Positions 25,931 to 41,155 are shown, numbered from the stretch's first letter. The stretch is 64,000 nt of DNA from Tequatrovirus NIC06P2 (OZ035760.1); one strand, 5' to 3'. The notes: generated by a model from the sequence alone, not told the origin. Translations and numbers: made by a program.

Positions 25931-25934
25931 CAAT

Positions 25935-25960
25935 GGGGACCTTTCGGTCCCCATGTTTTT
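25935..25960. terminator. Terminator between gene 54 and the convergent alt-region ORF
   Basis: GGGGACC-UUUC-GGUCCCC followed by T-run. Confidence 0.65.
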
Positions 25961-26249
25961 ATTTACGGAATGAAATAAAAGCAGCAACTGAAGCAACTAA
26001 ACTGTCTTCAATATAAACCTCAATTTTTACCGGAGCTTCTGACTCAAATTTACCTGTTACTACACCTTGGAAAATACTTTCAGTCTGTTCTGGCTTTGAA
26101 AAATTTTCAGAAGGAAAAATTCCGAACTTTTTATCTGTTCCAAAAATTTTGATAAATTCATCATAAACTGCTTCATTAAAAGCATTATCAGCAGGAATAA
26201 CGCCTTCAACTGCAAGTTCTTGACCCAAAAAGCGCAAAGAAGATTTCAT
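25959..26249 (-). CDS. Hypothetical early protein downstream of alt (alt.-1-like)
   Basis: 96-aa ORF with early promoter and RBS GAGGAA upstream. Confidence 0.55.
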   Translation of the reverse strand: MKSSLRFLGQELAVEGVIPADNAFNEAVYDEFIKIFGTDKKFGIFPSENFSKPEQTESIFQGVVTGKFESEAPVKIEVYIEDSLVASVAAFISFRK

Positions 26250-26256
26250 TTTGTGT

Positions 26257-26310
26257 TCCTCATGTTATGTTAGTAAGGCTACTATAACACAACACGAGGG
26301 ACTTGTAAAC
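26257..26310 (-). promoter_or_regulatory. Early promoter (GTTTAC, 17-bp spacer, TATAGT) plus leader; copy A of a 54-bp repeat
   Basis: Minus strand gtttacaagtccctcgtgttgtgttatagtag...catgagga upstream of ORF 25959-26249. Confidence 0.55.
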
Positions 26311-28373
26311 TACATTTTGAACTTTTTAGACATTCCGTTGATGTTAACCAAAGAAGCCAAGATTTGAGAAACTTCGTTTTCCTCTTCTTTTGATTCTTCT
26401 ACAAGGAATTGATTAAATCCAGTCATTGGACGAACTTCACCAGTTTCCATTAAATGGTCGCCATCATAGATTACCGATTCGGTGAGCTCTTCCGTGGTCA
26501 TAACTTCAGCTTGAATGAGTTTTGTATTATTAGATGTTGTTCCGTCATTATTAGAAGCATCAGTTATTTTATTAACTTTGACCATCAATCCACGCGGTAG
26601 AATAACTTCAGCTTCTGTTGCTATTCCGAGACTTCCTGGATATACAACATTAACTTTATGAGCTCCATCAATTGCCCATCCTATTTGAACTTTAACGTAT
26701 TCAGGATTTTCTTTATACGCTCTTATTTCGTTTGGATTAATAGTTATTCCTTCTTCATTTTTATCAACTGTTAATTCATTGCGAGCTTCTGGTTCTAAAA
26801 GACCAATACCAGCATGTGTAATTCCAAAACGTCCAAAAATGATAGGAGTTAAAGAAGTAGATACAAAATTTCTGAAGTAGAACACTTTATTTTTAACTAA
26901 CGCTTCATATATAGGAGCAGTCATACTTTGAGCACGATAAACTGTAATGCCTTCTGGTATACGGTCACCATTTTCAAAAGCTGAATCTAAGTTATTTATA
27001 GCAGATTCAATTTCTTTTTCACTCATTACATCATATCGTTCTGGATTGTAACGACCTAAAAGAAGATTATTGATGTCAGTATATCCTGAACCGCAATATT
27101 CTCTAATGCCACGCTTTTGTGATGGAGTATATTTAGAACCATCGCGGGCAATAGTAATATCAATCATTGGACCAGCACCAATTCCAGAAAAACTGTAAAT
27201 CATTCGTTTGAGGAATTTAGTTTTTGCTGCGTTCCAGGAATTTTTAGTTATTTCTTCCCAGACTTCATCTGGTTGTCCTTTACGATTTTTATTATGATTA
27301 GCAAGCCATTTATCTTTATAATCTTCAAAGAATTGATTTACAGCTGCTGCGTATTTCTCTAAACATTTTATTGAAGTAGTTGGTTCATTTTTAATTGCAT
27401 TAAAAATTACTTCTTTAATTTTTTCTGAAACTTCACCGACCCGACTCAGCGGAAAGAATTTATAATCATAGTGAAGTTCATCTGCCGTTCCTTCAGCAAT
27501 AATTTTTGCTGCCTTTGTTTTAGAAGCTAATGAATTAATTCCAATTTTCATTTCTTCTGCTTCGGGAATTAAAGGTGCAGTAGCTGGTTTATTAAAATTA
27601 GCTGCTGTAGATTCATACTTCTGGAATAATTCACTTTCAAATCTAGAAGATTCCAATGACTGACTTTGTGCAATTGCTCTACGGGAAATTTTAACTTTAA
27701 CGATTACGGCTTGGTCAGAACGTTTATCATTTTCTTGTGCAATTGATGCTGCAATTGCTTCATTTTTAGTTACCTGATTTCCGGTATCTTTGTTGATATA
27801 AACATCACCAACCTTCGATTCAACCTTAGTAAAGAGTTCAGTACTAATTTCTGGAACTCCTGGAATGTCTTCTAGTGATACGTTTTTACGATGTATAAGA
27901 ATATATGCATACTTTTTATCGTAATCCCAGAGTTCCTTAAGAAGGACGTATCTGCCACCTGAACGACTACGGATAAGTCTATCAGCAATAACTTGAATTT
28001 GTCGAGCTTGACCAGCGGTTTTAGACTTAAGAATACGTAGCATACAAGCATCAATTTTATATTGACGCATTGTTTGCATTGCAACAGTAAAAACTGAATT
28101 GATATAATTAATTGGACTTGGACCAAGACCTTTTAATTTAGCAATTGAACCTTTAGCAGTTAATGTAAAAGGAACAATGTGCATCATTTTATCGCCCATT
28201 TTTAAATCGCGATTAGTATCACCTCCAGATGTATAGGTACATAAACGAAAGCCTGGTTGTTCAATTGCATCATCAACGTGAACTGAAAAAATTTGCGGTA
28301 TTTTCTTCTTTGGATTTAAGTTTGTAATCGGAAGAGTAGTATCTTCGTCAAATAATTCTGTAATGAGTTCCAT
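26310..28373 (-). CDS. alt: Alt, packaged mono-ADP-ribosyltransferase
   Basis: ORF 26310-28376; T4 Alt begins MELITELFDEDTTLPITNL, so start placed at the second ATG; late promoter upstream. Confidence 0.92.
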   Translation of the reverse strand: MELITELFDEDTTLPITNLNPKKKIPQIFSVHVDDAIEQPGFRLCTYTSGGDTNRDLKMGDKMMHIVPFTLTAKGSIAKLKGLGPSPINYINSVFTVAMQTMRQYKIDACMLRILKSKTAGQARQIQVIADRLIRSRSGGRYVLLKELWDYDKKYAYILIHRKNVSLEDIPGVPEISTELFTKVESKVGDVYINKDTGNQVTKNEAIAASIAQENDKRSDQAVIVKVKISRRAIAQSQSLESSRFESELFQKYESTAANFNKPATAPLIPEAEEMKIGINSLASKTKAAKIIAEGTADELHYDYKFFPLSRVGEVSEKIKEVIFNAIKNEPTTSIKCLEKYAAAVNQFFEDYKDKWLANHNKNRKGQPDEVWEEITKNSWNAAKTKFLKRMIYSFSGIGAGPMIDITIARDGSKYTPSQKRGIREYCGSGYTDINNLLLGRYNPERYDVMSEKEIESAINNLDSAFENGDRIPEGITVYRAQSMTAPIYEALVKNKVFYFRNFVSTSLTPIIFGRFGITHAGIGLLEPEARNELTVDKNEEGITINPNEIRAYKENPEYVKVQIGWAIDGAHKVNVVYPGSLGIATEAEVILPRGLMVKVNKITDASNNDGTTSNNTKLIQAEVMTTEELTESVIYDGDHLMETGEVRPMTGFNQFLVEESKEEENEVSQILASLVNINGMSKKFKM

Positions 28374-28396
28374 CATATCCTCTCTAGTGTTTATTC

Positions 28397-28404
28397 TATT
28401 TATA
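28397..28404 (-). promoter_or_regulatory. Late promoter TATAAATA upstream of alt
   Basis: Exact consensus on minus strand about 23 nt before the alt ATG. Confidence 0.55.
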
Positions 28405-38659: not shown

Positions 38660-39009
38660 TTAGAAAGGTCCTGGATGTCTTCTGCGAACTTGTTGAAGGA
38701 GTTGTTGATTTGTTTTTCAACCAATCCTGGCTTATGAGCCACCACATCCGCCTTCTTTGCGTCTTTGCGCAGTTTTTCATTTTCACGCTCAATAGCAGCA
38801 ATTGCCTCACGATTTTTATTATTCATCGCATCAATATAATTATACTGAATTCGCAAATTATTTAATGCTAAGGCGTTTTCATTGGCCGTTTTTGTAATTT
38901 CAGTAACTGATGTTTCTAATCTTTCTACCTTATTTTTTAAAATAATAGATGTTCCGCCAAATGCTATTACAAGTAATAGCAATCCAGCTGTAAAATTACT
39001 TACATGCAT
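38656..39009 (-). CDS. N-terminal TM plus coiled-coil protein, probable i-spanin
   Basis: 117 aa, one N-terminal TM helix then coiled-coil periplasmic domain; Rz-like architecture. Confidence 0.6.
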   Translation of the reverse strand: MHVSNFTAGLLLLVIAFGGTSIILKNKVERLETSVTEITKTANENALALNNLRIQYNYIDAMNNKNREAIAAIERENEKLRKDAKKADVVAHKPGLVEKQINNSFNKFAEDIQDLSK

Positions 39010-39506
39010 AAAGTTTTAATAACCTCTATAATATCGTCTTGAGAAAGACCGTTAATTAAAATATGATGTTCAGCTGGAGATTTAGAAATTTTAAAGCATG
39101 CCTCAACATCTTCTGCCATATCCGATGCACTACGATTTGGATTACTAATACCAAGGCGGTGTTTTCCCGTCAAAGGATTAACGATGATATAGCATTTGCA
39201 GCTATTGATATGAACATTGGGTTGAGTCTGATTAATGAACACTTCACAATCATACTTAGCGAGTTGATTTTCTAAAAAGACTTTCATCTCTTCAACCGCA
39301 TCAGGAAGCATATCACGGGCTTGCTCAAGACGACGATTTCGATATTCTTTAATGGTCGTTTTCCGCTTGACTTGCTTAGCTAAATCTTTCTTAAGATCAG
39401 TGATATATCCAACTCGACGATTTCCTTTGAATACAGAAATCCCATCTGTAGTATCACCGTATGCTTCAACGACCATTTCAGTAGTAATAAGCTGCAAATC
39501 CATCAT
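39000..39506 (-). CDS. alc: Alc, host transcription terminator (unfolds host DNA transcription)
   Basis: 168 aa, position between pseT region and rnlA, length matches T4 Alc; early promoter upstream. Confidence 0.8.
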   Translation of the reverse strand: MMDLQLITTEMVVEAYGDTTDGISVFKGNRRVGYITDLKKDLAKQVKRKTTIKEYRNRRLEQARDMLPDAVEEMKVFLENQLAKYDCEVFINQTQPNVHINSCKCYIIVNPLTGKHRLGISNPNRSASDMAEDVEACFKISKSPAEHHILINGLSQDDIIEVIKTLCM

Positions 39507-39510
39507 AAAG

Positions 39511-39564
39511 TCCTCATGTTATGTCAGTAAGACTACTATAACACAACACGAGGGACTTGTAAAC
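39511..39564 (-). promoter_or_regulatory. Early promoter plus leader upstream of alc; copy B of the 54-bp repeat
   Basis: Identical to copy A except 2 mismatches. Confidence 0.55.
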
Positions 39565-39567
39565 AGC

Positions 39568-41155
<1,588 letters not shown>

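Follow-up and report, generated by a model that had tools for sequence, protein, structure and literature searches.

A duplicated 54-bp early-promoter cassette with a predicted hairpin over the ribosome-binding site upstream of alt.-3 and alc in Tequatrovirus

A number of genes in phage T4 and its relatives are preceded by a hairpin that sequesters the ribosome-binding site (RBS) and encloses an internal promoter. Described examples are e, soc, 49, I-TevI/II/III and segB of T4, together with mobE of phage Aeh1 (PMC3014915, PMC2988022). In these known cases, the enclosed promoters are late (or middle) promoters, and it is early/middle translation that is blocked. A second kind of compact regulatory unit, the PeSL (promoter-early stem-loop) cassette, occurs in RB49/phi1, PST/T4 and nt-1/KVP40 (Arbiol 2010; Comeau 2014; PMC2839356, PMC4122927); it is defined by a stem-loop that lies upstream of a promoter and acts as a terminator or attenuator, and its many copies cluster in hyperplastic regions beside indels or ORFans (PMC4122927, PMC2839356). 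The early promoters of T4 follow a consensus of GTTTAC, 17 bp and TGnTATAAT with an A-rich UP region (PMC2988021, PMC1524935).

The DNA considered here is a window of 64,000 nucleotides from Tequatrovirus NIC06P2 (OZ035760.1), a T4-like phage other than T4 itself, in which positions are counted from the first letter. It contains two copies of an element that combines an early promoter with a predicted RBS-hiding hairpin. Among the structured translation initiation regions compiled in the reviews consulted, alc is absent, with 0 occurrences of the gene in PMC3014915, and a description of an early-promoter version of the RBS-hiding hairpin was not found in the searchable literature; older T4 reviews may record the promoters or the repeat.

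The 54-bp repeat and its genomic setting

Copy A of the element (26257..26310) lies between the alt stop codon and alt.-3, and copy B (39511..39564) between the rnlA stop codon and alc, both on the minus strand. Read from 26310 to 26257, copy A is GTTTACAAGTCCCTCGTGTTGTGTTATAGTAGCCTTACTAACATAACATGAGGA; copy B (39564 to 39511) departs from it by two substitutions, C33->T and A40->G, leaving 52/54 positions identical. The near-identical repeat of 54 bp, with two mismatches and a separation of 13.2 kb, that was proposed in an initial annotation of the window is thereby borne out: the copies share one orientation at a start-to-start distance of 13,254 bp, a mismatch-tolerant search of the window returned these two sites only, and 0/100 dinucleotide-preserving shuffles held a 54-mer match at ≤3 mismatches. 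Searched for repeats as a whole and against itself, the 64-kb window yielded the A/B pair as its sole family of long near-exact direct repeats (D4). The repeat is confirmed as real and non-random. Its edges are sharp, the first base being the G of GTTTAC and the last bases GAGGA, and the flanks are unrelated; at copy A, the element's base 1 is also the final base of TAG, the stop codon of alt.

As a BLAST query, the 54-mer by itself matched 996 places in 499 phage records, or about two per record. Both copies were read in 18 genomes (T4, T2, T6, RB18, PP01, pSs-1, ime09, F26, sutha, fPS-90, several metagenomic genomes and the window itself), and in 18/18 one copy stood upstream of alt.-3 and the other upstream of alc. 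Scans of sequence collections with a 22-mer and with the invariant 3' half recovered 6-10 Tequatrovirus loci each, which were entered in the polymorphism table and added no diversity. A 94%-identical copy of the element was also encountered in MG010123.1, a 32-kb record labelled 'Staphylococcus phage SAJK-IND' that is probably a mislabelled or contaminated T4-like contig.

The gene downstream of copy A encodes a 96-aa homologue of Alt.-3 with a DUF5498 domain (25959..26249, minus strand), and that downstream of copy B is alc (39000..39506, minus strand), which encodes a 168-aa inhibitor of host transcription (Pfam ALC). Upstream are the gene of a 688-aa ADP-ribosyltransferase, alt (26310..28376, minus strand), at copy A and rnlA, for RNA ligase 1 (39568..40692, minus strand), at copy B. 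A time-resolved transcriptome and proteome of T4 placed alt.-3 and alc together in the class 'early RNA, early protein', alt among the late genes, and rnlA in the class 'early RNA, late protein' (PMC9697503). The suggestion made from the repeat, that the two downstream reading frames are co-regulated, fits this common class of alt.-3 and alc.

The block between the copies comprises alt, alt.1, 30, 30.x, rIII, 31, cd, pseT and further genes up to alc. It had been described as running from alt through rnlA; in fact it ends with alc, and rnlA lies outside. The block includes genes 30 (DNA ligase) and 31 (co-chaperonin), classic essential genes of T4. Recombinational deletion between the repeats, which the initial annotation had envisaged, would remove both and would therefore be a dead end, leaving no viable phage; the persistence of about two copies per record in the 499 records fits this. 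The polymorphisms common to A and B suggest instead that sequence has been exchanged between them, as set out below.

Further features were noted around alt. The window has a single alt gene (26310-28376, minus strand), which is a chimera joined at about 26420-26620: nt 4-1958 match the first of the alt paralogues in T6 (95%), and its final ~310 nt match the second one at the C-terminal end. In most relatives, two complete alt paralogues stand in tandem, and remnants (alt.-1/alt.-2) are present in T4, F26 and fPS-90; the chimera looks like the product of an unequal crossover between paralogues. At the alt.1/alt boundary (28427-28397, minus strand), the late-promoter box TATAAATA comes directly after a stem-loop, AAAGGCC-TTCG-GGCCTTT, that has a T-run, which gives a compact junction of terminator and then late promoter.

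Early promoter and predicted hairpin

Each copy contains a predicted sigma-70 early promoter on the minus strand. That of copy A (26281..26309) consists of a -35 hexamer TTTACA (26309-26304), a 17-bp spacer, the TGn motif of an extended -10 element (26289-26287) and a -10 box TATAGT (26286-26281); that of copy B (39535..39563) has TTTACA at 39563-39558, a spacer of the same length, TGn, and TATAGT at 39540-39535. With a G before TTTACA and TGT as the extended -10 element, both copies present the T4-type early promoter pattern. The core of GTTTAC, 17 bp and TATAGT recognized in the initial annotation is thus found in both, along with the extended -10 motif that it had not listed. Variants of the -10 box in relatives are TACAGT, TATAAT and TACAAT. 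Transcription is predicted to begin at about A37 of the element, ~7 nt past the -10 box (~26274 in copy A and ~39528 in copy B), which leaves a leader of ~18 nt within the repeat; the RBS GAGGA had been correctly assigned, and with this predicted start the earlier figure of roughly 25 nt for the leader would be too long. Annotators of the Yersinia phage fPS-90 predicted an early promoter at the site orthologous to the alc copy. Mapped T4 5' ends at alc or alt.-3 were not found in the searchable literature. The RegB cleavage site GGAG is absent from the Tequatrovirus leader, which has GAGGA.

As had been stated, the other early-promoter-like sites of the window share only the consensus. The reading of the element as promoter plus leader is sound as far as it went; what it missed is a hairpin in which the promoter spacer pairs with the Shine-Dalgarno (SD) sequence. 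In copy A, the predicted RNA hairpin (26258..26299, minus strand) has 18 pairs, including 2 G.U, and is formed by a 5' arm at 26299-26280, a loop at 26279-26276 and a 3' arm at 26275-26258, the last containing the SD GAGG (26261-26258). That of copy B (39508..39559, minus strand; SD GAGG at 39515-39512) has 22 pairs and one bulged C, its helix being longer than that of copy A, with one end at the final A of TTTACA and the other 1 nt short of the alc AUG. In the element, positions 12-31 (promoter spacer and -10 box) make up the 5' arm, and positions 36-53 (the entire predicted leader including the SD GAGG) the 3' arm.

Folding of the sense RNA gave -23.3 kcal/mol for copy A (z -5.0) and -27.3 / -24.4 kcal/mol for copy B (z -3.9), and with each copy 0/200 shuffles folded as well. 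The antisense strand folded more weakly (-19.6 kcal/mol and z -2.9 for copy A, -15.4 kcal/mol and z -1.7 for copy B), because the G.U pairs of the sense strand, two in copy A and three in copy B, turn into C.A. This difference points to a structure that would act at the RNA level, on the coding strand. Of the two differences between the copies, one falls in the loop and the other turns a U-A pair into U.G. Partition-function calculations returned a probability of 0.00 that the SD is unpaired in RNAs starting 0-200 nt upstream, and of 0.5-0.7 for RNAs begun at the predicted start site. That start, A37, falls in the 3' arm, such that transcripts from the embedded promoter are predicted to have no 5' arm. 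Searches of Rfam 15 gave 0 hits at copy B and, at copy A, only sub-threshold chance hits (e.g., MIR6140 at 19.8 bits vs a gathering score of 140). The possibility of an intrinsic terminator, for which a U-run behind a GC-rich stem would be expected, was rejected: the terminator scan picked up neither copy, and there is no T-run, the tails being AACACAAAAUG and CUUUAUGAUG.

Sequestration of the SD, which these thermodynamic data support, could also serve translational coupling, with the SD inaccessible on polycistronic RNA up to the moment at which a ribosome completing alt or rnlA opens the base of the stem; translation of the downstream gene would then depend on that of the upstream one and not be switched off. 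Such coupling would suit the position of the upstream stop codon, which abuts or overlaps the -35 hexamer at copy A (TAG|TTTACA) and in several other genera, and which places the anti-SD 7-15 nt past the stop, near the reach of a terminating ribosome. From the size of the ribosome footprint, however, a ribosome that terminates there would be expected to open no more than the first few pairs of a stem of 18-22 bp; in Roskildevirus, moreover, 20 nt separate the stop codon from the -35 hexamer downstream of it, and coupling leaves unexplained why the embedded promoter always yields transcripts that lack the 5' arm. Coupling is regarded as an unlikely explanation beside the one preferred here, in which the hairpin silences read-through RNA.

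Other pairings and short reading frames were observed around these promoters. Among the other early-promoter-like sites of the window that were tested, none has a spacer able to pair with its own SD. At two of them on the minus strand, 36238-36210 and 32785-32758, the spacer can pair with the initial ~10 bases transcribed from that same site (GGTAGAG/CTCTACC and GGTACAGG/CCTGTACC; z near -4); the -10 box falls in the loop, and the SD lies outside the helix. The alc promoter of Tegunavirus is of this same type. A small hairpin inside the promoter spacer recurs in early promoters of several genera (the alt.-3 promoters and the Mosigvirus alc promoter), examples being GCAC-AAGGAA-GTGC, CACA-TGGA-TGTG and CCAC-ATGGAAT-GTGG, and is also found in the MotA-box-like promoter upstream of rnlA (window 40738-40724, minus strand). 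In both copies of the element, the AUG of cAUGAGGA, at element positions 48-50, starts a mini-ORF that has 5 codons in copy A (26263-26246) and 4 in copy B (39517-39503, both minus strand), each ending in a UGA that overlaps the main start codon (AUGA) despite differing intervening sequences. The mini-ORF is not conserved in other genera.

Variation within Tequatrovirus and among genera

Across the 18 Tequatrovirus genomes, there is no fixed difference between the copies, and the consensus sequences of A and B are identical. Thirteen positions are polymorphic, and 6/13 vary in A as well as in B, with identical alleles (C15T, G16A, T27C, G29A, G32A and T33A). The chance of that overlap is p = 0.0004 with all 54 positions free to vary, but 0.04 with 25 free positions and 0.16 with 20, so that the evidence for gene conversion weakens if few positions can vary. 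Copy A differs on average by 2.6 positions from copy B of another genome and by 3.0 from another copy A; the distance between A and B within a genome is slightly lower, at 2.2 differences (permutation p = 0.026). These values fit occasional gene conversion between the copies, and recurrent mutation under a shared constraint is a possible alternative source of the shared alleles.

Within the genus, no pair of the helix changes on both sides (0 pairs), because the sequences are too similar; 4 pairs show a one-sided change and are still paired, and 4 pairs have some unpaired cells. Among independent changes in the 5' arm, about four preserve the pairing and four disrupt it; G29A, one of the disruptive changes, makes for a better -10 box. 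Pairwise divergence is 0-1% over positions 36-54 (leader and SD) and 5-7% over positions 1-35, the latter diverging at least as fast as flanking coding DNA (2-4%). Conservation is much stronger in the 3' arm than in the 5' arm, so that the leader is constrained by something in addition to pairing.

For comparison at a greater distance, rnlA-alc intergenic regions were taken from 13 other genera using Alc as the protein query. The architecture is shared by 8/13, namely Gelderlandvirus, Jiaodavirus, Dhakavirus, Karamvirus, Moonvirus, Roskildevirus, Bragavirus and Winklervirus: an early promoter of the form TTTACA-(16-17)-TAnnAT is present, and the helix begins at the first base after the -35 hexamer. 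In all eight, the partner arm holds the SD, yet the sequences of the arms differ, as in the pairs TCTCCGTTTAGTT / AACTAAACGGAGA, TCCTCATCAG / CTGATGAGGA and ACCTCTCATTTTTA / TGAAAATGAGAGGT, and further in TCTCCTCAT / ATGAGGAGA and TCCTCATTTCGTTG / TAACGAAATGAGGA. The duplex of each spacer with its own SD region amounts to -15 to -23 kcal/mol (z -4.5 to -7.7; 0/500 shuffled spacers), vs a mean of -8 kcal/mol for spacers combined with SD regions across genera. A standard MAFFT alignment of the nine genera misaligned the arms, for which reason RNAalifold predicted no structure from it, and it was replaced by one anchored on the -35 hexamer. In the anchored alignment, 9/10 pairs changed on both sides and 97.5% of cells were paired, values of which neither was reached in any of 500 shuffles (0/500), and pairing fell to 42-55% in slid controls with the partner moved by 1-3 columns; the 5' arms are positionally homologous in this alignment, and the 3' arms were placed by each sequence's own fold, which is a bias towards structure.

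The exceptions are of several kinds: Mosigvirus has alc without such a hairpin, the spacer hairpin of Tegunavirus is present and ends short of the SD, Gualtarvirus has a different geometry in which the SD is not sequestered at alc, Gaprivervirus has an extra ORF inserted, and Ac42 has a different gene order. In Gaprivervirus VR25, this extra ORF of 77 aa between rnlA and alc is annotated as a second 'inhibitor of host transcription', and it is accompanied by a terminator of its own, a sequence resembling a promoter, and a hairpin that includes an SD and is situated entirely downstream of the -10 box. Judged from these comparisons of sequence, the pairing of spacer with SD at alc is an ancestral, ancient design. 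It is this conserved architecture, and not recent duplication alone, that explains a unit running exactly from the -35 hexamer to the SD.

The same comparison bears on whether the inverted repeat might work as DNA, as a cruciform or as a palindromic operator through which a protein of the phage or of the host would control the promoter. The arms do flank the -10 box, a typical operator position, and the stems in other genera are perfect Watson-Crick palindromes. Operators, however, keep their sequence and not their pairing, whereas these arms differ between genera and stay complementary; the two to three G.U pairs of Tequatrovirus pair on the sense strand only, and the 3' arm always coincides with the SD, which a function at the DNA level would not require. 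A DNA-level role is accordingly given hardly any credence.

A plainer reading is that a strong early promoter and its leader were duplicated, the inverted repeat being incidental, and that the consequences are recombination between the repeats and co-expression of the two genes. The promoter consensus and the 52/54 identity on which it relies are real, 54 bp is near the homology length reported for T4 recombination (Singer et al. 1982, as cited in PMC2839356), the shared polymorphisms indicate exchange between the copies, and double-sided covariation is absent within the genus. An incidental inverted repeat would not be expected, however, to be rebuilt at alc in eight genera with 9/10 pairs covarying, and whereas the spacer of a promoter can usually vary freely, the one here pairs with the SD (z -4.5; 0/500 shuffles). 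Loss of the interval from A to B would moreover carry the cost already noted of the essential genes 30 and 31, and about two copies per record have been kept across 499 records. Plain duplication is therefore considered improbable as a full account.

The alt.-3 copy appears to have a different history. In five other genera, alt.-3 directly follows alt and has its own early promoter, the spacer of which is not complementary to the SD and contains a small internal hairpin instead; among the genera examined, the pairing of spacer with SD at alt.-3 is confined to Tequatrovirus. In a Kanagawavirus (Kosakonia phage 305), the alt.-3 spacer GAATGAACG is perfectly complementary to codons 2-4 (CGTTCATTC), a pairing by which the region where translation starts may likewise be hidden in RNA that reads through from upstream. 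The alt.-3 promoter that already existed in the ancestor of Tequatrovirus probably received the alc cassette by ectopic gene conversion, the direction being that suggested by these distributions. The cassette would thus have overwritten the alt.-3 promoter, and the copies would have exchanged sequence since. The conversion may have been bounded by motifs that both promoters already had, GTTTACAAG at one end and CATGAGGA at the other, which would explain the sharp edges of the repeat. A similar exchange between the alc and alt.-3 promoters of Mosigvirus was considered and not claimed, the identity of 0.77 being too weak against a background of 0.6-0.74.

Proposed function and relation to known systems

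The account that is considered reasonably probable is that the element unites an early promoter with an RBS-hiding hairpin such that alt.-3 and alc are translated well only from their own immediate-early RNA. As DNA, the cassette would be a strong T4-type sigma-70 early promoter that fires immediately after infection, and RNA begun at the predicted start would carry an 18-nt, A/C-rich, unstructured leader ending in the SD GAGGA. Within RNA initiated upstream, the same cassette would fold into a hairpin of 18-22 bp with the ribosome-binding site buried; only transcripts begun at the embedded early promoter would escape the 5' arm. Both alt.-3 and alc would then be translated efficiently from their own early transcripts and poorly from later read-through RNA.

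The source of such read-through would be late alt mRNA at copy A and rnlA-containing mRNA at copy B. A late-promoter consensus, TATAAATA, is present at 28397..28404 (minus strand), ~20 nt upstream of the alt start codon, and on the minus strand no intrinsic-terminator-like site follows alt until the one at 25954-25933, past alt.-3; that site belongs to a bidirectional terminator-like stem-loop (25933..25954) between alt.-3 and gene 54. Read-through across copy A from the TATAAATA upstream of alt is therefore plausible, and late alt mRNA would cross copy A and alt.-3 with the SD buried. Upstream of rnlA, a MotA-box-like promoter TGCTTC...TACTAT is predicted at 40744-40719 (minus strand); its counterpart is absent from the published list of T4 middle promoters. 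Both the read-through and a translational block in vivo are inferred.

A broader proposition is put forward tentatively, with somewhat less than even confidence: that the spacer of an early promoter can double as an anti-SD for immediate-early genes situated behind later genes, an 'early-only translation gate', and that the cassette is transplantable by ectopic gene conversion, as from alc to alt.-3. If this were true, whole modules of promoter plus translation control would move between loci in phage genomes, and the DNA that positions RNA polymerase would also encode the RNA that silences read-through copies.

Should the preferred account be confirmed, the element would be the reverse case of the textbook T4 mechanism, in which embedded late promoters delay lysozyme and homing endonucleases. 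Alc, which shuts off host transcription, and Alt.-3 (DUF5498) would be withheld from later read-through RNA, providing a reason for alc expression to be confined to the first minutes of infection and tying Alt.-3 to the same immediate-early programme. The comparisons among genera suggest that the spacers of T4-like early promoters can carry information at the RNA level, conserved across at least nine genera, which is of relevance to promoter annotation and to the engineering of T4-like therapeutic phages. The two copies further offer a clean natural example of concerted evolution in a 54-bp regulatory module. Practical impact is expected to be modest, as the class of mechanism is already known and the function here is predicted.

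Like the PeSL cassettes, the element is a compact intergenic unit of stem-loop, sigma-70-like promoter and SD (PMC2839356, PMC4122927), and a short repeated piece of regulatory DNA that is a substrate for recombination. It was therefore asked whether it might be a mobile terminator-promoter cassette of that type, with a stem-loop that attenuates upstream transcription and a sequence that mediates modular shuffling of genes, a reading to which the exchange between copies and the position of copy A beside a region variable among relatives (two alt paralogues, remnants or a chimera) would lend themselves. The PeSL stem-loop sits upstream of its promoter as a terminator, however, whereas the hairpin here overlaps the promoter, spanning spacer, -10 box and SD, and hides the last; it is without a T-run and was not scored as terminator-like. 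Instead of many copies there are two, at about two places per record (499 records) and at the same two loci in 18/18 genomes, with no association with gene shuffling, the flanked genes alc and alt.-3 being conserved. Membership of the PeSL family was rejected on the position of the stem, the missing T-run and the two conserved loci, and this origin is thought very unlikely.

With ordinary T4 early promoters, the element has in common the -35 hexamer, the spacer length, the extended -10 and -10 motifs and the A/T-rich upstream sequence. It is unlike them in that they have only the consensus in common, whereas the likeness of A to B extends over the full 54 bp and their spacer is able to pair with the SD. 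The closest resemblance is to the hairpins of T4 e, soc and I-TevI: a stable helix is predicted to bury the SD in transcripts initiated upstream, a promoter is placed so that transcripts from its predicted start are without the 5' strand of the helix, and the arrangement is conserved among related phages. It departs from those cases in that the anti-SD is the 17-bp spacer itself, in that the cassette is present twice, and in that the embedded promoter is an early sigma-70 promoter and the predicted block falls on later read-through RNA, reversing the timing. The element thus belongs to the RBS-hiding hairpins with an internal promoter, and is atypical among them in that its promoter is early, not late or middle.
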